Numbered from the stretch's first letter, positions 12,478-51,130 are shown. The stretch is DNA of 64,000 nt from Mycobacteriales bacterium (GCA_035548125.1 DASZTV010000024.1:3231-67230), one strand, 5' to 3'. Notes: generated by a model not told the origin, from the sequence alone. Made by a program: numbers and translations.

Positions 12478-12740
12478 GAAATAGCCCGGATTCGCCATGG
12501 TCCGGCCCGCTTCGTCCGGTGTGTCATGACAGGCGTCGATCGGACTCCCGGTCGCCGTAGCACCCAGGGGATGCCATGCAGTCGTGCACGGTGGGAGGCC
12601 ACCGGACCGTCGGATACGACGGCCTGTCGGCGCTCCGGCTCGCCGTCGCGATCCAGCGCGACCCCCTCGGCGGGATGCCCGCCGAGCGAGCGGCGTACCG
12701 ATCCATCCCACGCCCGCGCACCTCTCCCGCCGTCGGCGTG

Positions 12741-13412
12741 ATGCACCGCAGCACGGACGCCGCGCTCCCGAGAACCGCCGAAGCGCCTCGTCCGCGCACC
12801 CCCGTGGCGGCTCCCAAGATCCCGAGCCCGTCCCCTCCCGCCGAGCCGACCAGCGAGCAGGCTCGCATCATGGCGGCGGTCCGCGCCGCGCAGGCCGGCG
12901 ACGGCGAAGCCTTCGGTGAGCTCTATGACGCCTACGCCGACCTGGTTCACCGCTACATCGCGTATCGGGTGGGCAACTACGCGCTCGCCGAGGACCTCAC
13001 CAGCGAGACCTTCCTGCGGGCCTTGCGCCGGATCTCGACGTTCACGTGGCAGGGTCGCGACTTCGGCGCGTGGCTCGTGACGATCGCGCGGAACCTGGTC
13101 GCCGACCACTACAAGTCCAGCCGCTACAAGCTCGAGCAGCCGACCCCGGACATGATCAGCGCCGGCGCCGACAGCGAGGAGGACGGCCCCGAGACGGCGG
13201 TCCTCGCCGGCATCACGAACGCGACGCTGCTCGCCGCGGTCCGCCAGCTGGGTCAGGAGCAACAGGACTGCATCGTGCTGCGCTTCCTGCAAGGCCTCTC
13301 GGTCGCGGAAACCGCCGCGATCCTCGGCAAGAACGAAGGCGCGGTCAAAGCGCTTCAGTACCGCGCGGTCAAAGCCCTCGGACGCCTACTCCCATCGGAT
13401 CTGGTCGCATGA
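12741..13412 (+). CDS. bldN: ECF RNA polymerase sigma factor with N-terminal extension, BldN-like
   Basis: Region 2 and region 4 motifs: GEAFGELYDAYADLVHRYIAYRV, LTSETFLRALRRISTFTWQGRDFGAWLVTIARNLVADHYK, LRFLQGLSVAETAAILGKNEGAVKALQYRAVKAL. These match my recollection of Streptomyces sigma-BldN. It holds the same position relative to rex-hemA. The start is uncertain: candidates are 12576, 12738/12741 and 12870. Confidence 0.8.
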   Translation: MHRSTDAALPRTAEAPRPRTPVAAPKIPSPSPPAEPTSEQARIMAAVRAAQAGDGEAFGELYDAYADLVHRYIAYRVGNYALAEDLTSETFLRALRRISTFTWQGRDFGAWLVTIARNLVADHYKSSRYKLEQPTPDMISAGADSEEDGPETAVLAGITNATLLAAVRQLGQEQQDCIVLRFLQGLSVAETAAILGKNEGAVKALQYRAVKALGRLLPSDLVA

Positions 13413-14758: not shown

Positions 14759-16201
14759 ATGCCCAGCATTCGAAAGCGCCGCAGCGTCGCGCTCGGCGCG
14801 TTCGCTCTCGCCAGCACCACGACGTTGGCGGCTGTGGCCGCGGCCTCGCCGGCGGCAGCGGCAAGCACGTCGCACACCGCGCCGGCGTACTACGCCGGCC
14901 AGGCGCAGGGGAACGCCCTCGGTCTGAACATCGACCTGCCGGTGAAGCTCCCGCTGCTCCCGAACCCGCTCTCGCTCAACCTGATCCATCTTGAGGGCAA
15001 GACCGTCCACGACCCGCTGCACCTGGCGGGCAACACCACGGCGATCTCGAACGCCACCGCCAGCCTTATCACCGGCAGCCTGGCCGACACGCTTCAGAAC
15101 ACGCTGCACGTCAACCTCAACCGCACGGCGCACGTCGCGCTCGGTGGGCTGACCCATCAGGAGACCTCGCTGCTCGACATCCCGGCGAAGCCGCTCGCGG
15201 ACCTGTCGATCGGCGACCTGGTCGCGAACCTCGTCAAGTCGACGAACGCGACCAACTCCGGCGCTCACAGCATCAAGGCCAACATCGCGTCGGGTAACGA
15301 CCTGCTCGGTGCGCAGACGGTGCAGCAGATCCAGAACCTGATCGACTCGACGCACCTGACCGACACCCTGCAGGGCACGGTCAACCAGGTGCTGTCGACG
15401 CTGCAGAACGTCACCAAGACCACCCCGATCGTCGGTGACGCGGTCACGACCGTCACGAACACGGTGAACGCCGTGCTCGCCAAGGTCACCAAGCTGGTCG
15501 ACAACCTCGGCACCACGCCGCTGGTCAGCATCTCCATCCACAACACCGACCAGCAGGTCACGCCGTTCGCCAGTGGGGTGAAGTCCACGAGCACCATGGG
15601 CCTCGTCGACGTCGACGTGCTCGGCGGGCTGCTCTCGATCGACGGCTTCCACAACTCGGCGACGGCGTTCGCCAACGGCAAGCCGGGTGGCGCGCACGCC
15701 GAGGTTTCGGGTGCTCAGCCGCTGATCAAGGTCAACGCCGCTGACGCGCTCTGCGCCCAGGTCGGCGCCGATGGCGTCAGCCTGTGCAACGTCGATGGTC
15801 TGGGTCTCCCGGCCTCGATCACCTCGCAGGTCAACGGCCTGCTGAAGACCCTCTCGAACGAGATCAACCAGATCACCTCGAAGATCCTCAGCGGCGTTCC
15901 CCTGATCAGCGAGACCAAGGGCAGCACCCACGTGTCGGAGGACGGCAAGAGCGCTACCGCGACCGCGCCGGCTTACAACATCTCGGTCGGCCACCTGCTG
16001 ACTGTGACCCTCGGCAACGGTGTGTCGGCCTCCGCGGCGGCGCTGCAGAACAAGCCCGCCGAGGTGACCGTGCTCAACAACCCGGAGAACACCCCGCACA
16101 GCCTCCCCTACACGGGTTCGAACTACCCGCTGATGGGCCTGCTGGCAATGGCGCTGCTCGGCATCGCCTTGGTGGTTCGCCGCCGTCTGATGGCTCACTG
16201 A
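14759..16201 (+). CDS. secreted LPXTG cell-wall-anchored surface protein, family not recognised
   Basis: 480-aa ORF with GGAGG 6 nt upstream of the ATG. Sec signal peptide (MPSIRKRRSVALGAFALASTTTLAAVAAASPAAAA). Asn/Thr/Leu/Val-rich body. C-terminal sorting signal LPYTG plus hydrophobic helix plus RRRLMAH. Confidence 0.88.
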   Translation: MPSIRKRRSVALGAFALASTTTLAAVAAASPAAAASTSHTAPAYYAGQAQGNALGLNIDLPVKLPLLPNPLSLNLIHLEGKTVHDPLHLAGNTTAISNATASLITGSLADTLQNTLHVNLNRTAHVALGGLTHQETSLLDIPAKPLADLSIGDLVANLVKSTNATNSGAHSIKANIASGNDLLGAQTVQQIQNLIDSTHLTDTLQGTVNQVLSTLQNVTKTTPIVGDAVTTVTNTVNAVLAKVTKLVDNLGTTPLVSISIHNTDQQVTPFASGVKSTSTMGLVDVDVLGGLLSIDGFHNSATAFANGKPGGAHAEVSGAQPLIKVNAADALCAQVGADGVSLCNVDGLGLPASITSQVNGLLKTLSNEINQITSKILSGVPLISETKGSTHVSEDGKSATATAPAYNISVGHLLTVTLGNGVSASAAALQNKPAEVTVLNNPENTPHSLPYTGSNYPLMGLLAMALLGIALVVRRRLMAH

Positions 16202-17155: not shown

Positions 17156-18123
17156 AAGAAGACGCTGCGACGAGCCAGCAGCAACTTGTACAGCGTCTGC
17201 TGGATCGTCTCGCGGACCTGGTCGGTGAGGTTGAACACCAGCATCGGGTCGTCGGCGCCCTCGGGGCCGATCTTGTCGGTGGCAATCGGCTCACCGAACT
17301 CGATGATCCACTTCGACGGCAGCGGGATCAGCCCGAGCGGACCGAGCAGCGGGAAGAACGGGGTGATCGGAAGGTAGGGCAGACCGAGCGCCCTAGCGAC
17401 CGCCGGGATGTTCCCGACCAGCGGATAGATCTCCTCGGCGCCGACGATCGAGCAGGGAATGATCGGTACGCCGGAGCGCAGCGCAGCGGACACGAACCCG
17501 CCTCGCCCGAACCTTTGCAGCTTGTAACGCTCGCGGTAGGGCTTGCCGATTCCCTTGAAGCCTTCGGGCCAGACCCCTACCAGCTCGCCGGCCTTCATCA
17601 ACCGTTCCGCATCCTCGTTGCATGCGAGCGTCGCGCCGGTCTTGCGCGCCATCGGCGCGACGACCGGCATCGTGAAGACGAGGTCGGCCGCGAGCATCCG
17701 CAGGTGGCGTTTGGCGGGATGGTGATCGTGCAGGGCGACGGTCGTCATCGCCGAGTCGACCGGGATCGTTCCGGAGTGGTTCGCGACGATAAGCGCGCCA
17801 CCGGTCGACGGGACGTTGTCCATCCCGCGCGCCTCGATCCGGAAGTACCGCTCGTACACCGGGCGCAGCGCCGGCAGCACCAGGTTGTCGGTGAGGTCCG
17901 CGTCGAATCCGAAGTCGTCGACATCGAAGTCCCCGGTGATCCGGCGCCGTACGAAGGCCAGCGCGCCGGCCAGCTTGCGCTCGAGGTCAGACGGCTCGGC
18001 GGCGGGCAGCGACTCGACCGGACGCGGCTCGTCCCGCTCGCCGGACGAGCGCGAACGGCGGCGCCGTGGACCCTCGGACCCGCCGTCGAGCGGGATGACC
18101 CTGGCCTCAGGCACGAGCGACAC
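17152..18123 (-). CDS. 1-acyl-sn-glycerol-3-phosphate acyltransferase family protein (Rv0502-like)
   Basis: NHSGTIPVD (HX4D-type) and FPEG-like (VWPEGFKG) acyltransferase motifs. Convergent 4-nt overlap with the HAD gene. Confidence 0.85.
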
Positions 18124-29312: not shown

Positions 29313-30917
29313 TTAGAGCGTGACCCGAACCGTACGGCCGTAGCCGGGGAGTGCGTCGGCGCCGGCGATCTCGCTGGTGGGCAAGGAGGGGCCGAGGTTC
29401 AGCGTCAGCGTCCGCTTGCCGCAGCGGGGTGGCGTGGTGATCGTGACCCTGCCGGTGCCGTGGACGGTGAGGCCGTGGCAGCTGACGTCGGTCAGCCGCA
29501 GCAGCTCCGCGACCGGGCGGCGCGCCCGCACGTGCCACCCCCAGACCGTGAAGCTCGCCGCGCCGCTGAGGTAGTCGAAAGTGGTCGGGTACGGCGGCGG
29601 GCTACCGGTTCCGTCCGGGTGCCGCAGCCGGGCGTACTGCGCCGCGACCTGCGCGCGGAGCCACGGGTTCCAGTAGGTGTCCGAGTGGATGCCGGGATGC
29701 AGCTCGTAGTGCTGCGAGACATCAGCGGCGGCAAACGCCTGGTTCAGCTCGAGGTTCGTCGGCAGCACCAGATCCTCGAACGCCTGCGCGGTCAGATAGC
29801 CGGGAAGTGAGAAATCGCTCGGCTGCCGCGGAATCGTGTCGTTGGAGAAGCCACGGATCATCAACGACTGGTGCCGGCCGCGCCGCGCCACCGCGTTGCC
29901 AGCGAGGTCCACCGGTTGGCGGGCGAGGTAGTACGCCTGGTCAGCCACCGGGTCGCCGAAGGCGTACAGCACGACCGCGACGTCCTGCGCCGCGCCCGGC
30001 AGCCCGCCTAGCGGGATCGTCCCGCCGAGGGGTGCCGGCACGGTGAGCGGCGGCAGCTGGGTCGGCGGGAGCAGGCCGGCGGGCCCGCTCGGCGCCGGGG
30101 CCAGCCCCGGAGCAAGCAGGATGTTCATGATCCCGGAGTCGGCGCCGATGCTCGCCCACTCGTCCGGGTGCTGCAGACCGATCGCGTAGGAGCCGTAGCC
30201 ACCGAGCGACTCGCCGTCGAGGGCCCTGGACGCACGGCCGCGCGCCACTCCGAGATGACGCTCGACGAACGGCACCAGCTCGTCGACCACGTAGGAGGCG
30301 AAGCGGGGTGCCCGCGTCGGGTAGCGCGGATCGGCGCCGGCCTCGGCGTACTTCGGATTCCAGTCCGCCCAGAACCCGTCGAGCAGCGGTCCCGGGCCGA
30401 AGCCCCCGGGCACGGTCCTGCCATCCGGTGCGACCAGCACCAGGTCGACCGGGGAAGCCGGCTTCCACCTCCGCTGGTCGGCGTACTTCCACGGGGCATC
30501 CGTCGCATACGGGGACACCTGCGGGCGATGCGCCAACGCGGCGACCCAGGCGCTCGGCGCGTCGGGGGTGCCGAGCATGGACGTCAAATCACCGCCGAAC
30601 CCGTGCAGCAGGTAAAGCGTGGGGCACCGACGCTGGGCACACGCCGGCGGCACGAAATAGGAGAAGGCCGTGGTGCCGCCGAGCTCAGCCGCGGGCTCGC
30701 GCCGACAGGCCACCTTCCCGACAACGACCGACGCCGCGTCGGGCGCCTGACAAGCAGCGAACGGTGACACCGCGACGGCTCCACTCGCTGCCCCCGCGAA
30801 CGGTGACACCGCGACGGCTGCGCTCACTGCCGCGCTCGGCGTCAGGGCCAACACCAGGGACGCCACAACCAGCGCCGCCCCCCTCACCTTCGCGATCTTG
30901 CACTTTTGCACCTTCAC
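29313..30917 (-). CDS. secreted alpha/beta-hydrolase (putative esterase family) with C-terminal extra domain
   Basis: Signal peptide (AALVVASLVLALTPSAAVSA), LYLLHGFGGD, and nucleophile elbow GESLGG. Start uncertain (GTG 30917 or GTG 30887) because it lies inside an inverted repeat. Confidence 0.8.
   Translation of the reverse strand: MKVQKCKIAKVRGAALVVASLVLALTPSAAVSAAVAVSPFAGAASGAVAVSPFAACQAPDAASVVVGKVACRREPAAELGGTTAFSYFVPPACAQRRCPTLYLLHGFGGDLTSMLGTPDAPSAWVAALAHRPQVSPYATDAPWKYADQRRWKPASPVDLVLVAPDGRTVPGGFGPGPLLDGFWADWNPKYAEAGADPRYPTRAPRFASYVVDELVPFVERHLGVARGRASRALDGESLGGYGSYAIGLQHPDEWASIGADSGIMNILLAPGLAPAPSGPAGLLPPTQLPPLTVPAPLGGTIPLGGLPGAAQDVAVVLYAFGDPVADQAYYLARQPVDLAGNAVARRGRHQSLMIRGFSNDTIPRQPSDFSLPGYLTAQAFEDLVLPTNLELNQAFAAADVSQHYELHPGIHSDTYWNPWLRAQVAAQYARLRHPDGTGSPPPYPTTFDYLSGAASFTVWGWHVRARRPVAELLRLTDVSCHGLTVHGTGRVTITTPPRCGKRTLTLNLGPSLPTSEIAGADALPGYGRTVRVTL
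30757..30819. repeat. 24-bp perfect direct repeat (39-bp period) inside the esterase 5' region
   Basis: GCGAACGGTGACACCGCGACGGCT occurs at 30757-30780 and 30796-30819. It encodes a duplicated AVAVSPFA peptide just after the signal peptide. Confidence 0.9.
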
Positions 30918-30952
30918 GGCGCCGTCAAGACGTTGAAAAGTGCAAGATCGCG
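30891..30952. repeat. 17-bp perfect inverted repeat with 28-nt spacer spanning the cheW-stop/esterase-start junction
   Basis: CGCGATCTTGCACTTTT (30891-30907) pairs with AAAAGTGCAAGATCGCG (30936-30952). The segment is unusually AT-rich for this DNA. The spacer contains the 10-bp palindrome ACGGCGCCGT and the GTG 30917 start candidate. Confidence 0.9.
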
Positions 30953-31405
30953 TTAGAGGGAGGCGAGGTCGTCGACGTTGGCGAGCGACTCGGCCCAGCC
31001 GCTCGCCGCCACGTCGAGCATCTTCTCGAGGTCGACGAGCAGTACCGGACCGTCCGTGGCGCTTCGTACGCCGATCACGTACGACGGCAGTACCTTCGCG
31101 GGCCGATCGGTCAGCTCGGGCAGCGCCTCGGCGGGCAGCACGGCCAGCACCTGGTCGACCGCGACACCCACTGCGTCACCGTCGACCTCCAGCACCAGAA
31201 CGTCGCCCTGATCCTCGGGTGCGTCGGGGCCGCGTACGTCGAGGACCGGAAGCGGCGCACCGCGCAGCTCGATCACTCCGGCCAGTGGCGCCTGGACGCC
31301 GGGAAGCCGCTCCAGGCCGGCGAGCCGCACGATCTCGCGGACATCGTCCAACGACGTCGCGAAGGCCCGCTCCCCCAGGCGGAACATCACGTAGCCGGTG
31401 ATCAT
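30953..31405 (-). CDS. cheW: CheW-like coupling protein
   Basis: 150-aa protein from ATG 31405 (ATGA overlap with the cheR stop). CheW domain pattern FRLGERAFATSLDDVREIVRL..LPGVQAPLAGVIELRGAPLPVLDVRG. The track ORF extends to 31714. Confidence 0.85.
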   Translation of the reverse strand: MITGYVMFRLGERAFATSLDDVREIVRLAGLERLPGVQAPLAGVIELRGAPLPVLDVRGPDAPEDQGDVLVLEVDGDAVGVAVDQVLAVLPAEALPELTDRPAKVLPSYVIGVRSATDGPVLLVDLEKMLDVAASGWAESLANVDDLASL

Positions 31406-32883
31406 GAGGTCCCTTCCATGGAGGGCGTCGGTGCCACGGTCCCGGCGCGGTCTGCAAGCTGCAAGCACAGCGCCGCAAGCTCTGCCACGTCGCGGCCGCC
31501 CAGTTCGGGCGCGGTCAGGTCCTTCGGCCGCCGACCGAGCGTACTGGCGGCGGCCCGGTAGGACCGCGCCGCCGCGACACCCTCGCCGACGCGGTCGAGG
31601 GCTCCGCCGAGCATGAAATGAGCGAACCCGTGCTCGGGGTCGAGGTAGACGGTCTTGCGCAGCACGACTAGTGCATCGGCATCTCGGCCGAGGTTCGTGA
31701 GCGCAACTCCCCACAGATAGTGGGCGTCGGCGCGCAGCGGCGTGCTGCCGGCGACCTCCTCGGCGAGGTCCGCGGCCTCCGCGTACCTGCCTTCGGTGAG
31801 GGCGCTCCGCACCGACTCGAGCGGGTCCGGCGGCGCTTCCGCCGGCACGATCGCCCGCGGGACCGGCAGCGCGGGAGTGACCAGGCGCGGCAGCTTCGGG
31901 ACCTCAACCGACTTCTTCCGGTCGGGATGGCGACGGTCGGCATCCGCCTTGCGCCGCTCCGACGCGCCCGGGCGATGCGCGTCCTTGGTCCGCCGCTCGG
32001 GGACTACCCGACGCCGGTCGGCCACCTCCGCCTGCTCCTCGACGTCATCGAGCCGCCGATAGACGAAGGCGTCGCCGAGTGAGACGAGGGTGAAGTCGTC
32101 GCTGATCTGCCACAGCGTCTCTGCGTGACCCAGGAAGAGGTAGCCCCCGTCCCGCAGCCGGTCGTGCAGCCGCTTCATCAGCGTTCGGGTGGTCTCGCGG
32201 TCGAAGTAGATCGTGACGTTGCGACACAGGATCAGATCGGCCTCGCCGGCCGAGAACGCCGGCTCGTCGGTCACCAGGTTGCGGTGCTCGAACTCCACGA
32301 TCGAACGGACTTCGTCCCGGACGGTCCAGGAGGTTCCGTCGCGGTCCGGCACGAACCAGCGGTTGAGGTCCGCCTGCTCGGTCATGACGAACGACCGCTC
32401 GCCGTACCTGGCTTCGCGACCTGCGGCGAGGCCACGGGTCGAGATGTCCGTCGCGAGGACCTTGACGTCCCAGTCGGTCGTCGCCGGCAGCAGCTCGCGG
32501 ACCATGATCGCGATCGTGTACGCCTCTTCACCGGTCGAGCACCCGGCGCTCCAGATCCGCAACCGCTTGCGGTCTGCGGCTTGTCGGATGAGCTCCGGCA
32601 TCACGAACTTCCGCAACGCGCGGATCTGCGGCGGGTTCCGGAAGAAGTGAGTTTCGGGGATCGTCACCTCGTCGATCAGCCACTGCAGCTCGTCGGTACC
32701 CGTCGGGGCGCCGACCTTCGCGAGGTAGGTGCCGACGTCGGGGGTTTTGGTCGCGCGCATTCGCTCGCCGATGGAAAAGCCGAGCGAGTCGCGACGCGAC
32801 TCGTCGAAGGAAAGCCCGGCCGCGCTGTGGAGGAGCTGCGTGACCGTCGCGAACTCGGCGTCGCTCAATGCGACGCGCTTCAC
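31402..32883 (-). CDS. cheR: chemotaxis protein methyltransferase CheR with C-terminal TPR domain
   Basis: GTG 32883 (GTGA overlap with the cheB stop). Motifs TIPETHFFRNP, RIWSAGCSTGEEAYTIAI and LCRNVTIYFD. A basic linker is followed by TPR-like repeats (AHYLWGVALTNLGRDADALVVLRKTVYLDPEH...). The track ORF extends to 33306. Confidence 0.88.
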   Translation of the reverse strand: MKRVALSDAEFATVTQLLHSAAGLSFDESRRDSLGFSIGERMRATKTPDVGTYLAKVGAPTGTDELQWLIDEVTIPETHFFRNPPQIRALRKFVMPELIRQAADRKRLRIWSAGCSTGEEAYTIAIMVRELLPATTDWDVKVLATDISTRGLAAGREARYGERSFVMTEQADLNRWFVPDRDGTSWTVRDEVRSIVEFEHRNLVTDEPAFSAGEADLILCRNVTIYFDRETTRTLMKRLHDRLRDGGYLFLGHAETLWQISDDFTLVSLGDAFVYRRLDDVEEQAEVADRRRVVPERRTKDAHRPGASERRKADADRRHPDRKKSVEVPKLPRLVTPALPVPRAIVPAEAPPDPLESVRSALTEGRYAEAADLAEEVAGSTPLRADAHYLWGVALTNLGRDADALVVLRKTVYLDPEHGFAHFMLGGALDRVGEGVAAARSYRAAASTLGRRPKDLTAPELGGRDVAELAALCLQLADRAGTVAPTPSMEGTS

Positions 32884-34067
32884 TCCGACCTGCCCTCGTC
32901 CGCCGGCGAGAGGAGCCGGTGCAGCGCCACCGAGATGTCGGGCAGCGGCAGCTGCATGTCGACGGCGTCTTCGGACTTGGCGGCGGCAGGCATGCCGTAG
33001 ACCGCGCTGGTCGACTCGTCCTGGGCGATGGTGATCCCGCCCTGGTTGCGGATCCGCTTCAAGCCCGTCGCCCCGTCGCGACCCATCCCGGTCAGCAAAA
33101 CCCCGGCAGCGAGCGAGCCGTACGCGTCGGCCGCCGACGTAAAGGTCACATCGATGCCCGGCACGTGGTACTGCGTCGGAGGCGGGGTCTGCGTCGTCAC
33201 CCGCAGATGATCGTGGATCACGAGGTTCATCGCGCCCGGCGCAATCGTCACGACCCCTGGCGCCAGGCGCTTGCCATGCTCCCCGAGGACGACCGGGAGC
33301 GGACACACCTCGTCGAGCCAGTGCGTCAGTCCTTCCATGAACCCGTCGGCCATGTGCTGGACGACGACGATGGCGGTCGTCGTACGCGTCGGCAGATCCG
33401 AGAGCAAGGTCGCGAGTGCTTGCGGGCCGCCCGTCGATGCGCCGATGACGAGTACCTCGAACTCTCGTTCGGCGAGCCGCTCGATGGGGTCTGACGAGTC
33501 CGACACAGCGCGCGGCGCCGCTTTGCGCGAGGACGTGGTGCGGGGCGCCGGCTTCTCCGTGGTGCCGTCGAGCCGAGCGGTGGTGATGGCGGAACGCGAC
33601 TGGCCGAGCCGGCCTCGCGGGTGGGTGATGACCCGCACCCGGCCGGCCACCCGCAGCCGTTGGCGCAGCTCCTCGGCGTACTCCGACAGCCGTGCGCTGT
33701 CGTCCGGACCCGGCTTCGCCATCACGTCGATCGCGCCCGCCGCCAGCGCGGAAGCGGCGTTGTCGCGGTCGGCACCGTCGACGAACGCCGAATACACGAC
33801 GATCGGGGTCGGACGGTTCGCCATGATCCGCTCGATCGCCTCGATGCCGTTCATGACCGGCAGGTGCAGGTCCATGATGACCGCGGTCGGCTTGAGCTGG
33901 TCGACCAGTGCGATGGCGTCGCGCCCGGTGCGCGCTTCGCCGACGACCTGGAGCATCGGGTCTGCCGACATGGCGGCGCGGATGAAGCGCCGCTGCGTGG
34001 CGGAGTCGTCGACGATGACGACGGTGACCGGGCTGGGGAGCTCCGCCTGTGCCGTCACGTGTGACAT
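32880..34067 (-). CDS. cheB: protein-glutamate methylesterase CheB (REC + methylesterase)
   Basis: REC domain (VVIVDDS..., VIMDLHLPVMNG). Methylesterase motifs VIGASTGGPQAL, VQHM and GMGRDG. The inter-domain linker is unusually long, about 90 aa. Confidence 0.88.
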   Translation of the reverse strand: MSHVTAQAELPSPVTVVIVDDSATQRRFIRAAMSADPMLQVVGEARTGRDAIALVDQLKPTAVIMDLHLPVMNGIEAIERIMANRPTPIVVYSAFVDGADRDNAASALAAGAIDVMAKPGPDDSARLSEYAEELRQRLRVAGRVRVITHPRGRLGQSRSAITTARLDGTTEKPAPRTTSSRKAAPRAVSDSSDPIERLAEREFEVLVIGASTGGPQALATLLSDLPTRTTTAIVVVQHMADGFMEGLTHWLDEVCPLPVVLGEHGKRLAPGVVTIAPGAMNLVIHDHLRVTTQTPPPTQYHVPGIDVTFTSAADAYGSLAAGVLLTGMGRDGATGLKRIRNQGGITIAQDESTSAVYGMPAAAKSEDAVDMQLPLPDISVALHRLLSPADEGRSE

Positions 34068-34161
34068 GTCGTCGTGTCCGTTCGCCTGCTTGAGCGTGCG
34101 TGGCGCACGGTTCCCCCCAATGACCCGTCAGTGTCAGGCAGTTTGATCCGATTGAGCCCGA

Positions 34162-34755
34162 TTACTGCGTCTTCTTCGTGAAGTGGAAGGCGACCTCCTC
34201 CGCGTTGACGCCATCAATCGTGGCGCTGAGGTGATAGGTCCCGGGCTGGGCCGGCTCACCCCGCTTGCAACCCGGATCCAGCCGGTGGCCGTCCCAGGTG
34301 ATCGAGACCTGCCGACTGGCTCCGGCTTTGAGCGCACGCGTCGCCGACGTGTCCGGCTGCGGACATCCCTTGGTGGTCCACCACTGGGCGGCGCCGGAGG
34401 TCACGGTCCACTCCTCGTTGGAGGGGGAGGTCGTCAGCCGGCAGGTCGCCTGGGAAACGTTGGAGAGGGTCGCCGTGAACACCGGCTGCTGGCCGACCTG
34501 ATAGGTCGCCTCCGATGCCGAGAGCACCGCCGACAGCTGGTCCGGCGTGCACGCGCCGCCGCCCCCGGTGGTCTGGGTTGTCTGCTGCGGGTTCGGCCCG
34601 TCGGTGGAGGTGGCTCGCGGCGACTTCGACGATCCGCCGGTCGTCGCGATGACCAGCACGATGATCACGAGCAGCGGCAACCCGACCACGACGAGCCGGC
34701 GGACCCAGTACACCTGGGGTGGATGGGGTCCGACCGGAAAGAGCAGGCTGCTCAC
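34162..34755 (-). CDS. membrane-anchored DUF4232-like protein (Rv3587c-like position next to mutY)
   Basis: TM helix (LVVVGLPLLVIIVLVIA), Thr/Gly/Pro linker, and an ectodomain with spaced Cys residues (ACTPDQL..., ATCRL, KGCPQ, PGCKRG). Start uncertain: GTG 34755 or ATG 34824. Confidence 0.7.
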   Translation of the reverse strand: MSSLLFPVGPHPPQVYWVRRLVVVGLPLLVIIVLVIATTGGSSKSPRATSTDGPNPQQTTQTTGGGGACTPDQLSAVLSASEATYQVGQQPVFTATLSNVSQATCRLTTSPSNEEWTVTSGAAQWWTTKGCPQPDTSATRALKAGASRQVSITWDGHRLDPGCKRGEPAQPGTYHLSATIDGVNAEEVAFHFTKKTQ

Positions 34756-49981: not shown

Positions 49982-51130
49982 GTGGCAGAGCGGCTCACCG
50001 TGTCGACCGGCCCGCTCGAGACGGCGGACGTGGTCCTCACGCTGCCGCCGCACCATCCGGCTGCGCACGGTGTCCTGCGCCTGGCGCTCACGGTCGACGA
50101 CGACCGGGTCGTCACCGCCGACCCGGTCGTCGGCTACATGCACCGTGGGGCGGAGAAACTGTTCGAGGCGCGAGACTTCCGCCAGATCCTGGTGCTGGCC
50201 AACCGGCACGACTGGCTGTCCGCGTTCGGCAGCGAGCTAGGGCTGGTGCTCGCCGTGGAGCGCATGCTCGGCATCGAGGCACCGGAGCGAGCCGTCTGGC
50301 TCCGCACCCTGCTCGCAGAGCTGAACCGCGTGCTGAGCCATTTGATGTTCCTCGCCGGGGCAACGCGCAGCTTCGAGCCCGGTGCCCCCGCGGCGACGGC
50401 ACTGACCGCCCGGGAGGTCGTGCAGGAGCTGATGGAGGAGGTCAGCGGCGGGCGGATCCACTTCATGTTCAACCAGGTCGGCGGGCTCAAGGAAGACCTC
50501 CCGGATGGCTGGTTGTCCCGGGCGCGCAACGGCATCGCGACGGTCCGGGCAGCCGCTGACGGCGCGCTCACGGACCTGGTGAGAACGGATGAGAGCTTCC
50601 GGGCGGCGCACCGCGGAGTCGCGGTTCTCACCGCCATGGACGCCGCCGGCTACGGCGTGTCCGGTCCGATCGCGCGCGCCGGCGGACTCGACCTGGACCT
50701 GCGACGCGACGATCCGTACCTCGCCTACGCCGAGCTTCCGCCGGACGTGTTTCGCGTCGTCACGCGCGAGGCGGGCGACGCGTTGGCTCGGTACGAGTGC
50801 CTGCTCGAGCAGATCGAGGTGTCGCTCGCGATCGCCGGCCACTGCGTCGGCGTGCTCGAGGACCTGCCGAGCGGGCCGGTCAACGTCCGGCTACCCAACG
50901 TCGTCCGCACGCCGGAGGGCGAGACGTACGCCGCGACGGAGAACCCGCTCGGGATCAACGGCTACTACCTGGTCTCACGAGGCGAGCGTGCGCCATGGCG
51001 GCTGAAGCTGCGAACCGCCTCGTTCAACAACGTGCAGGCGTTGGCGGTCGCCCTGCCCGGCACTCACGTGCGGGACCTGACGACCGCCATGGCCAGTTTC
51101 TTCTACGTCATAGGCGACGTCGACAAGTAG
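49982..51130 (+). CDS. stand-alone NuoD (complex I 49-kDa / Nqo4)-like protein
   Basis: Full-length similarity to NuoD: [57 protein letters not shown], and C-terminal [10 protein letters not shown]. No other nuo genes are nearby. It starts 26 nt after the permease stop on the same strand. Confidence 0.85.

Follow-up and report, generated by a model that had tools for sequence, protein, structure and literature searches.

A conserved cheB-cheR(TPR)-cheW operon at a fixed chromosomal site in soil actinobacteria, probably one half of a split ACF-type chemosensory pathway

A complete chemosensory system, in the definition of Wuichet and Zhulin, consists of an MCP, CheA, CheW, and a response regulator. 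CheR methyltransferases that bear TPR domains are typical of non-flagellar pathways, and FrzF and WspC are examples of this type. The Wsp system of Pseudomonas comprises the CheR-TPR protein WspC, the CheB protein WspF, the CheW proteins WspB and WspD, the MCP WspA, the CheA-REC protein WspE, and WspR. The methyltransferase FrzF of the Myxococcus xanthus Frz system carries a TPR domain that is reported to control site-specific receptor methylation.

For the actinobacterium Acidothermus cellulolyticus 11B, an ACF row has been tabulated in which CheB, CheR, and CheW have the consecutive accessions WP_011719060-62, the ACF CheA (WP_011720708) and another CheW (WP_011720706) are found about 1,650 accession numbers away, and the genome contains a single 40H receptor (PMC10746217, Tables S3/S4). 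The F5 cluster of Acidothermus has its own CheB, CheR, and CheW (PMC10746217). Our literature searches found no dedicated study of the che genes of Frankia or Acidothermus.

The DNA analysed here, referred to below as the window, is a stretch of 64,000 nucleotides from a Mycobacteriales bacterium of an uncultured soil/rhizosphere MAG lineage. Three genes on its minus strand encode a CheB composed of a receiver domain, a low-complexity linker, and a methylesterase domain (32880-34067, 395 aa), a CheR with a C-terminal TPR domain (31402-32883, 493 aa), and a CheW adaptor (30953-31405, 150 aa). The Pfam domains, together with the GTGA overlap between cheB and cheR and the ATGA overlap between cheR and cheW read from the sequence, bear out the original prediction of a translationally coupled trio. 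On the same strand, the trio is followed by a gene for a secreted PF00756-family esterase (29313-30917) and preceded by a gene for a membrane-anchored protein with four conserved cysteines (34162-34713). The latter had been described as DUF4232-like, but DUF4232 is not demonstrable in it and the precomputed Pfam annotation of JGI gives DUF7974. It is a backbone gene found in most related loci, and we take it, from gene order, to occupy the position of Rv3587c in M. tuberculosis. The GC3 is 0.87-0.89 in cheB, cheR, cheW, and the esterase gene, the same as in radA and disA.

In CheB, Pfam places Response_reg at residues 16-121 and CheB_methylest at residues 207-380 (190.8 bits), and the protein passes the NCBIfam model NF001965 with 320 bits against a cut-off of 293. 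The linker between the two domains, thought at first to span about 90 aa and to be unusually long, measures about 85 aa (residues 122-206), some 45 aa more than in E. coli CheB; it is of low complexity and differs in length among orthologues. The acidic pocket and phospho-acceptor aspartate noticed in the receiver are indeed kept: residues D20, D21, D66, S93, and K118 are intact in the alignment with E. coli D10, D11, D56, and K109, and are retained in 73-76 of 76 orthologues. The catalytic triad S211, H238, and D331, aligned with E. coli S164, H190, and D286, is retained in at least 73 of the 76 (at least 95%), and the dN/dS of cheB is 0.10-0.17. Since receiver pocket and triad are both conserved, a phosphodonor is under selection, in line with the earlier expectation, drawn from the intact receiver, of a kinase somewhere.

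The CheR protein consists of a methyltransferase part (aa 1-277), an Arg-rich linker that is predicted to be disordered (aa 280-349, nt 31837-32046) and contains invariant RR pairs, and a helical TPR domain of about 3.5 repeats (aa 356-482, nt 31438-31818) that is conserved throughout the family. The Pfam CheR domain covers residues 77-268 with 183 bits, CheR_N reaches 26.2 bits, slightly below its cut-off of 27, and the best PDB matches are the CheR chains 5xlx, 1af7, and 1bc5 (E 5e-35). The motifs FFRN and WSAGCSTGEE show no variation among 11 diverse homologues. In the AlphaFold model, which displays the fold elements expected of CheR, the pLDDT is below 50 over residues 280-349 and 76-93 in the TPR helices 356-482. 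The Pfam models TPR_16, TPR_2, and TPR_19 match residues 358-418, all under Pfam's own cut-offs, and consensus-TPR chains from the PDB match residues 363-458. The dN/dS of cheR is 0.10-0.21. One run labelled 'RNA', of doubtful nature, matched 4% of words and gave one 179-nt contig on cheR.

CheW has a single CheW domain (72 bits in Pfam) and matches the CheW chains 2qdl and 2ho9 in the PDB. Its residues E24 and R48 are the equivalents of E38 and R62 of E. coli CheW, which we take to be receptor and kinase contact residues, and at least 95% of 75 orthologues retain them. Of the three genes cheW is under the strongest constraint (dN/dS 0.05-0.13), and to our knowledge the only established role of CheW is to bridge receptors and CheA. 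Two loci, L026 and L027, have intact cheB and cheR but have lost cheW by deletion, with a short remnant of it left in L027.

A total of 157 relatives were detected, and 80 species-level loci were fetched. The gene order mutY-(DUF7974)-cheB-cheR-cheW-disA-radA was found in all 80, and the mutY-cheBRW-disA synteny is shared by the Acidothermaceae-labelled loci L058 and L079. The reading frames of the trio are intact in every locus save those cut by a contig end, and dN/dS for cheB, cheR, and cheW is 0.05-0.21 overall, versus 0.35-0.62 for the neighboring, fast-evolving DUF7974 gene. Decay of the trio in relatives, which the original prediction had named as an outcome that would speak against it, is thus not what these frames and ratios indicate. 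The trio is an operon under strong purifying selection at a fixed site in a clade of mostly uncultured soil actinobacteria; far from being a local oddity, it occupies the same chromosomal site in at least 80 species.

Between the DUF7974 gene and cheB lies a promoter-like motif, CTCAAGCAGGCGAACGGACACGACGACA (34067-34094, minus strand), of the form CTCAAG-N15-GACGACA, which occurs once in the window versus 0.01 occurrences expected. The related loci, 1.23 Mb in all, contain 46 sites with this strict motif; 45 of them lie immediately upstream of cheB or, where an Hpt gene precedes cheB, of that gene, and the motif is thus placed ahead of the operon in 45 lineages. Published criteria for WhiG/FliA promoters search for CTCA-N16-17-GCCGA or T(A/C)AA-N16-GCCGA, with the -35 exact, at most one mismatch, the CGA core kept, and no more than 200 bp to the start codon (PMC12871210). 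The window motif reads CTCA-N17-GACGA, or equivalently TCAA-N16-GACGA, and matches this description with one mismatch outside the CGA core of the -10; it has in common with the published actinobacterial promoters a CTCA or T(A/C)AA -35, a spacer of 16-17 nt, and the CGA core, but differs in its -10, GACGACA, where A replaces C at position 2. An exact CTCA -35 is reported for the flagellum-linked WhiG1/FliA clade and T(A/C)AA as the WhiG2 form, and chemotaxis genes are often among the predicted WhiG targets of actinobacteria (PMC12871210). Because the relaxed published pattern matches 29 times in the window, weight can be given only to the strict motif with its conservation across the phylogeny. 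The motif fits a promoter of the sigma-28 family (WhiG/FliA) type, and its use as a promoter is putative. In relatives, the cheB start codon lies 9 nt downstream of it, and alignment with them indicates that the true start of cheB is probably the GTG at 34058 rather than 34067; the mRNA would then have no leader or almost none.

To look for partner proteins, E. coli CheA, Tar, and Tap were used as phmmer queries against six-frame translations, in which CheW, CheR, and CheB matched as positive controls. No homologue of CheA, Tar, or Tap was detected in the 64 kb of the window or among 89 related loci totalling 1.31 Mb, in agreement with the first reading that no CheA or MCP is encoded locally; neither was one found by phmmer up to about 10 kb away from the trio in 80 species, nor was any CheA- or MCP-like gene seen when the relatives' cargo genes were read by eye. 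No flagellar gene was found in the window or any flank. A small stand-alone Hpt gene precedes cheB in 37 of the 80 loci, all in sister clades, and the 27-member clade of the window is without it; in the window itself no match to the Hpt family HMM was obtained, and tblastn gave only weak matches at 17159-17281. A search of 1.84 billion representatives with an Hpt profile returned about 75 small stand-alone Hpt clusters followed by multi-Hpt ChpA and hybrid-CheA proteins, the named ones from Bryobacterales, Pseudomonadota, and Desulfogranum, and no actinobacterial kinase was identified among the matches. A padded query, in which the Hpt consensus was joined to E. coli CheA P2-P5 and the Hpt part was scored, found no long protein with a similar Hpt. 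The presence of Hpt before cheB in 37 of the 80 loci suggests that at least some lineages feed CheB without a conventional full-length CheA. This gain of Hpt and the deletion of cheW in one lineage make a natural experiment on the rewiring of a chemosensory module.

We consider it probable that the trio is one half, that for adaptation and coupling, of a split ACF-type pathway, and that the genes for its receptor and kinase lie at other places in the genome. In such a pathway, of the Wsp or Frz type, CheR would methylate, CheB would demethylate, and CheW would couple; other loci would encode the receptor that accepts the methyl groups, the kinase CheA, and probably a further CheW. That this genome has such a receptor and kinase, and where they lie, is an inference, as is the output of the pathway. 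The operon would be transcribed from its own sigma-28-family (WhiG/FliA-type) promoter, probably as a leaderless mRNA with its 5' end at the GTG 9 nt past the motif. Phosphorylated CheA would, via its P1 domain, phosphorylate CheB at D66 and so turn on demethylation, and the TPR tail of CheR may adjust or direct methylation in the manner described for FrzF. This reading draws support from the split ACF set published for A. cellulolyticus (PMC10746217), from the fit of the promoter motif together with chemotaxis genes being WhiG targets (PMC12871210), from the canonical residues conserved in CheW and the bridging role of that protein, from the conserved receiver pocket and triad of CheB, and from the purifying selection of the trio and its fixed synteny, which the Acidothermaceae-labelled loci share. 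The lack of CheA and MCP genes within about 10 kb and the Hpt gene in 37 of the 80 loci count against it. If true, it would be ordinary biology, in which the fixed locus, the specific promoter motif, and the TPR-CheR with its Arg-rich linker serve as a genomic marker for an unstudied pathway of the ACF type in a large, abundant clade of actinobacteria from soil and rhizosphere. A further prediction of this reading is membership in the WhiG/FliA regulon, possibly with a link to c-di-GMP.

The likeness to Wsp, a comparison by description, lies in a CheR with C-terminal TPR, a REC-CheB, CheW adaptors, and an ACF output class unrelated to motility; however, Wsp is one contiguous operon that includes receptor, kinase, and output, whereas here only B, R, and W are together. 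FrzF, also a TPR-bearing methyltransferase, is a model for the TPR tail of the trio's CheR. Frz differs in that FrzG is without a receiver domain, which in the trio's CheB is intact, in that its genes are clustered with FrzCD and FrzE, and in that an Arg-rich disordered linker with invariant RR pairs is not among its described features. A. cellulolyticus, a family-level relative from the same broad actinobacterial lineage, shares with the trio the consecutive B-R-W order, and it encodes CheA and a second CheW far away and a single 40H receptor. Unlike the organism of the window it is cultured; its set is catalogued only, and its orthology to the trio would follow from gene order, consecutive accessions, and the family labels of related loci. 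The A. cellulolyticus CheR was not among the best 120 matches of a search with the CheR orthologue of L079. The ACF class of the trio would be borrowed from the Acidothermus row (PMC10746217) and from the TPR-CheR hallmark. On this comparison, calling the trio 'not a standard architecture' was an overstatement, as the same split B-R-W block is tabulated as ACF in A. cellulolyticus (PMC10746217), and of the options first offered, receptors encoded elsewhere as the substrate is the one favored.

Other readings give the trio different partners or none. It might be a self-contained switch, free of CheA and MCPs, in which CheR and CheB reversibly methylate glutamates on a non-MCP target, CheB takes its phosphate from an ordinary two-component kinase or phosphorelay, and CheW is re-used as a scaffold for that target; this appears unlikely. 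That a WhiG/FliA-controlled cheBRW forms such a protein-glutamate methylation switch, with the Hpt of the sister clades making the relay explicit, is the same proposal and as improbable. In favor of a CheA-less switch are the lack of nearby CheA and MCP genes across 80 species and the stand-alone Hpt directly before cheB, which suggests a relay independent of CheA P1, the nearest long relatives of this Hpt being ChpA-type kinases of other phyla. The L026/L027 lineage, which lost cheW and kept cheB and cheR, also points this way, but that loss is easily explained if a second CheW exists elsewhere, as in the split pathway. Against such a switch, cheW is the most constrained gene and retains its canonical residues, the clade of the window has no Hpt, and a stand-alone Hpt also fits a split CheA with its core encoded elsewhere, CheA3/CheA4 of Rhodobacter sphaeroides being a case of split CheA. 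Moreover, an ACF CheA, a 40H MCP, and a second CheW are all listed for the one cultured relative for which a census has been published (PMC10746217). If the genomes did lack CheA and MCPs, the trio would be a rare instance of CheR/CheB/CheW machinery outside chemoreceptor arrays. Quite improbable is an auxiliary adaptation set for a flagellar F5-type array, in which the trio of a motile host stands beside or replaces the array's own B, R, and W. TPR-CheRs being typical of non-flagellar pathways speaks against it, as does the lack of flagellar genes in the window and flanks. The motif fits the sigma-28 consensus with the exact CTCA -35 of the flagellum-linked WhiG1/FliA clade, but also the WhiG2 form T(A/C)AA (PMC12871210); Acidothermus is flagellated and has an F5 system, but that system already has CheB, CheR, and CheW, and the trio is filed under ACF (PMC10746217). 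The A. cellulolyticus B-R-W split comes close to the idea that the locus is a simple split of one ordinary motility operon, though for a non-flagellar class. Finally, a decaying remnant of a lost chemotaxis system, supported only by the lack of partner genes in the vicinity, is refuted by the intact frames, the low dN/dS, the invariant catalytic residues, and the conserved promoter motif, and has next to no probability left.

The trio and the secreted esterase might also be read as a single unit in which an exo-enzyme is under chemosensory control; the shared strand, the short spacing, and a consensus scan that predicted no T-tract terminator would agree with this, yet it is very unlikely. The signal-peptide esterase reported 35 nt past cheW stands as a PF00756 protein with a GESLGG serine motif and a signal-peptide-like N-terminus, but its start is uncertain (30917 or 30887), and the gap is part of a perfect 17-bp inverted repeat (30891-30952, no strand) that begins directly after the cheW stop codon. 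The arms, CGCGATCTTGCACTTTT and AAAAGTGCAAGATCGCG (30891-30907 and 30936-30952), fold with a dG of -44.1 kcal/mol (z -5.66; 0 of 200 shuffles fold as well), and the repeat could be a terminator or an operator. A similar palindrome occurs in the esterase-bearing relative L015 and is missing in relatives without the esterase; judged from this distribution, it is part of the esterase cassette, and it separates the esterase from cheW. By tblastn against the related loci, the esterase was found only in the window's own strain, L006/L013, and L015, which leaves it present in 2 of the 80 species loci besides the window and missing in 78, the nearest relative L010 included; its distribution is patchy on the CheR tree, inside one 8-member clade. 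The linkage to cheBRW thus fails as a conserved feature, and on the present sequence comparisons the esterase is unrelated, lineage-specific cargo outside the conserved module. In other species, the cheW-disA gap is filled by many different cargo genes, and the cargo of relatives, here or between mutY and cheB, includes hydrolases, NMO, peroxiredoxin, helicase, antiporter, aminotransferases, a sigma/anti-sigma pair, and a LuxR regulator.

The cluster consists of four minus-strand ORFs, assigned by their Pfam domains: a 395-aa protein with REC and CheB_methylest domains (32880-34067), a 493-aa protein with CheR_N, CheR, and TPR domains (31402-32883), a CheW of 150 aa (30953-31405), and a PF00756 esterase of 534 aa (29313-30917). 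The originally predicted overlap of cheB, cheR, and cheW is borne out by a GTGA at the cheB/cheR junction and an ATGA at the cheR/cheW junction, together with the domain matches. The cheB product scores above the NCBIfam cut-off for a CheB subfamily, and CheB, CheR, and CheW chains are the top solved-structure matches for the three proteins. GC3 is 0.87-0.89 in all four ORFs, the value of the flanking radA and disA, in a window with a G+C content of 67-73%. These two plus-strand genes form one flank; on the other lies a minus-strand gene for a DUF7974 membrane protein and, beyond it, mutY (plus strand). The original prediction had named radA-disA and mutY correctly, but its DUF4232-like gene is this DUF7974 gene. 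Judged by eye, the remaining window (hemB, PBP, proC, radA/disA, mutY, clpC, lysS, panCD, folPBK, ftsH, hpt, tilS) is a typical actinobacterial housekeeping stretch.

Alignment with E. coli CheB (from NC_000913.3) showed that D20, D21, D66, and K118 are kept, corresponding to E. coli D10, D11, D56, and K109, in agreement with the predicted intact acidic pocket and phospho-acceptor aspartate. S93, assigned by its position within the receiver, is also kept, and the triad S211, H238, and D331 (E. coli S164, H190, and D286) is present; receiver and triad positions are conserved in 73-76 of 76 orthologues. The inter-domain linker, expected to be about 90 aa long, measures ~85 aa, ~45 aa more than in E. 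coli; it is of low complexity and differs in length among orthologues, with ~125 aa in one relative. CheR retains the FFRN and WSAGCSTGEE motifs, and its AlphaFold model, built with 11 homologues as input, comprises a methyltransferase (1-277), an Arg-rich low-confidence linker (280-349), and a helical TPR domain (356-482). The linker (window 31837-32046), predicted to be disordered, carries the invariant pairs R290/291, R297/298, R310/311, and R317/318. Such conservation is unusual for a linker, which may bind an acidic partner or nucleic acid. CheW retains the residues that correspond to E. coli E38 and R62. Pairwise dN/dS between the window genes and those of four relatives was 0.10-0.17 for cheB, 0.10-0.21 for cheR, and 0.05-0.13 for cheW, compared with 0.35-0.62 for the neighbouring DUF7974 gene; the three genes are not decaying, a possibility that had been raised for close relatives.

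The identical strain is present in several JGI soil metagenomes with unchanged gene order. There are thousands of CheR-TPR homologues at >60% identity; those with names are MAGs labelled Mycobacteriales, Frankiaceae, or Frankiales. A scan of 185,579 species genomes detected 157 relatives, the best 80 of which were used for locus comparisons. The order mutY, (DUF7974), cheB, cheR, cheW, disA, radA was found by tblastn in all loci that are not truncated by a contig end, one of them from a complete genome, that of Acidothermaceae bacterium B102 (AP028633.1). In M. tuberculosis, the place between disA and mutY is that of Rv3587c; the DUF7974 gene holds this same position and is therefore a backbone gene, not a member of the module.

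The esterase gene behaves differently from the trio. The predicted cheBRW-esterase linkage was not conserved when searched by tblastn over the fetched loci, the gene being confined to the strain of the window, L006/L013 (loci on one contig), and L015; these carriers are scattered within an 8-member clade of the CheR tree. In the nearest relative, L010, the cheW-disA gap is 53 nt. The esterase is cargo. Other species carry in this gap an NMO, hydrolases, a peroxiredoxin, a DEAD-box helicase, an antiporter, aminotransferases, a sigma/anti-sigma pair, or a LuxR regulator. Unrelated genes are repeatedly found at the convergent cheW/disA junction, a cargo hot spot that ranges from <60 nt to 5.5 kb and also holds oxidoreductases (L008, L017, L028, L035, L037, L068, L079, L086, and others).

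Between cheW and the esterase gene lies a 17-bp perfect inverted repeat (span 30891-30952), with arms CGCGATCTTGCACTTTT at 30891-30907 and AAAAGTGCAAGATCGCG at 30936-30952, which starts one base past the cheW stop and extends into the 5' end of the annotated esterase ORF. It is relatively AT-rich and folds with -44.1 kcal/mol (z -5.66). L015 has a similar palindrome ahead of its esterase gene; relatives without the esterase lack it. Since the palindrome reaches into the 5' end of the ORF and the peptide it could encode is not conserved between the window and L015, the esterase start is uncertain (30917 or 30887). The palindrome itself probably serves the esterase cassette as a regulatory or terminator element, and looks like an operator or terminator moving with it.

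Aligned regions upstream of cheB yielded the motif CTCAAG-N14-[C/G]GACGAC-A. Its strict form has a single copy in the window (34067-34094, minus strand; 0.01 expected by chance) and 46 copies across 1.23 Mb of related loci, 45 of which lie directly before cheB or, in other clades, before an Hpt gene located ahead of cheB. The actinobacterial sigma-28-family consensus is CTCA-N16-17-GCCGA (WhiG1/FliA) or T(A/C)AA-N16-GCCGA (WhiG2), with an invariant CGA core and one mismatch tolerated, and chemotaxis genes are often among the predicted targets (PMC12871210, a 2026 preprint). The window motif, read as CTCA-N17-GACGA or TCAA-N16-GACGA, falls within these limits. Many relatives have their start codon 9 nt past GACGAC, exactly the position of a GTG at 34058 in the window, and the annotated cheB ATG, three codons upstream (34058-34067), overlaps the last base of the motif. 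The mRNA is therefore probably leaderless, and this alignment of start codons suggests that CheB starts at V4, giving 392 aa.

The Hpt gene is a stand-alone 90-150-aa ORF that sister clades carry between DUF7974 and cheB, in 37 of the 80 loci (among L035-L087; for example L055:3981-4322, L038:8518-8859, and L075:8626-8901), where it sits behind the same promoter motif. It matches Pfam Hpt (30.9, 32.8, and 25.5 bits; gathering score 24.6) and has an invariant His inside a DAHTLASSA motif. No Hpt homologue was found in the window, which belongs to a 27-member Hpt-less clade of the CheR tree (support 99); Acidothermaceae-labelled clades also lack the gene. An Hpt profile searched against 1.84 billion representatives returned ~75 small Hpt clusters, followed by multi-Hpt ChpA or hybrid-CheA proteins as the closest long relatives, named examples of which come from other phyla; the small protein therefore looks P1-like. 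Neither this search nor a padded word-based one identified an actinobacterial full-length Hpt donor. Through this gene, CheB may receive input from a split CheA or a phosphorelay. Within the window's own clade, the sister species L026 and L027 have lost cheW and kept cheB-cheR intact. The deletions map to L026:5480-5660 and L027:11330-11500, an NMO gene follows cheB-cheR, and L027 retains a 12-codon cheW remnant ending in VDLKRLLDAA.

As predicted, no CheA or receptor was detected nearby: phmmer with E. coli CheA, Tar, and Tap against six-frame translations of the window and 89 fetched loci (1.31 Mb) gave no match at E <= 1e-3, while CheW, CheR, and CheB encoded at the same E. coli locus, used as positive controls, each matched 71-91 ORFs. 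With CheY as query, the matches were confined to CheB receivers and a NarL-type regulator (~46.2-46.9 kb). Genome-wide evidence comes entirely from published tables (PMC10746217, Tables S3 and S4). In Acidothermus cellulolyticus 11B, an F5 (flagellar) system equipped with a CheA, W, B, R, and X of its own stands beside an ACF system with CheA WP_011720708.1, CheB WP_011719060.1, CheR WP_011719061.1, and the CheWs WP_011720706.1 and WP_011719062.1, and the genome encodes four 38H and one 40H receptors (PMC10746217). The ACF B-R-W accessions are consecutive and lie at a distance from those of CheA and the other CheW, the same split as in the window; gene order, together with the synteny of L058 and L079, both labelled Acidothermaceae, leads us to infer that the two trios are orthologous.

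The best-supported reading, which we consider reasonably likely, is that the trio is a detached module providing adaptation and coupling in a split ACF-type pathway; a WhiG/FliA-type promoter would drive its transcription, and it would work with a receptor, a kinase, and probably a second CheW encoded elsewhere. A methylation switch operating without CheA or MCP would fit the Hpt-bearing clades and the loss of cheW, but the strong constraint on CheW and the Acidothermus census speak against it, and we regard it as unlikely. Slightly less likely still is an auxiliary set serving a flagellar array. That the trio and the esterase form one functional unit is not supported and very improbable, and a decaying remnant is refuted by the dN/dS values. 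Notable features of the module are its fixed locus, operon-specific sigma-28-type motif, Arg-rich CheR linker, and a rewiring in particular lineages by gain of Hpt and loss of cheW; no study of it was found in the literature, which has it only as a catalogue entry for a single species in a supplementary table.

Elsewhere in the window, a NuoD-like ORF (NADH dehydrogenase subunit D family; 49982-51130, plus strand), recognized by eye from its translation, follows two ABC-transporter genes and stands alone, with no further nuo genes nearby. At 14759-16201 (plus strand), downstream of an ECF-type sigma factor gene (12576-13412), a 480-aa secreted protein rich in Thr, Ser, Leu, and Asn ends in LPYTGSN, a hydrophobic tail, and RRR, and looks like a candidate sortase (LPXTG-type) substrate.
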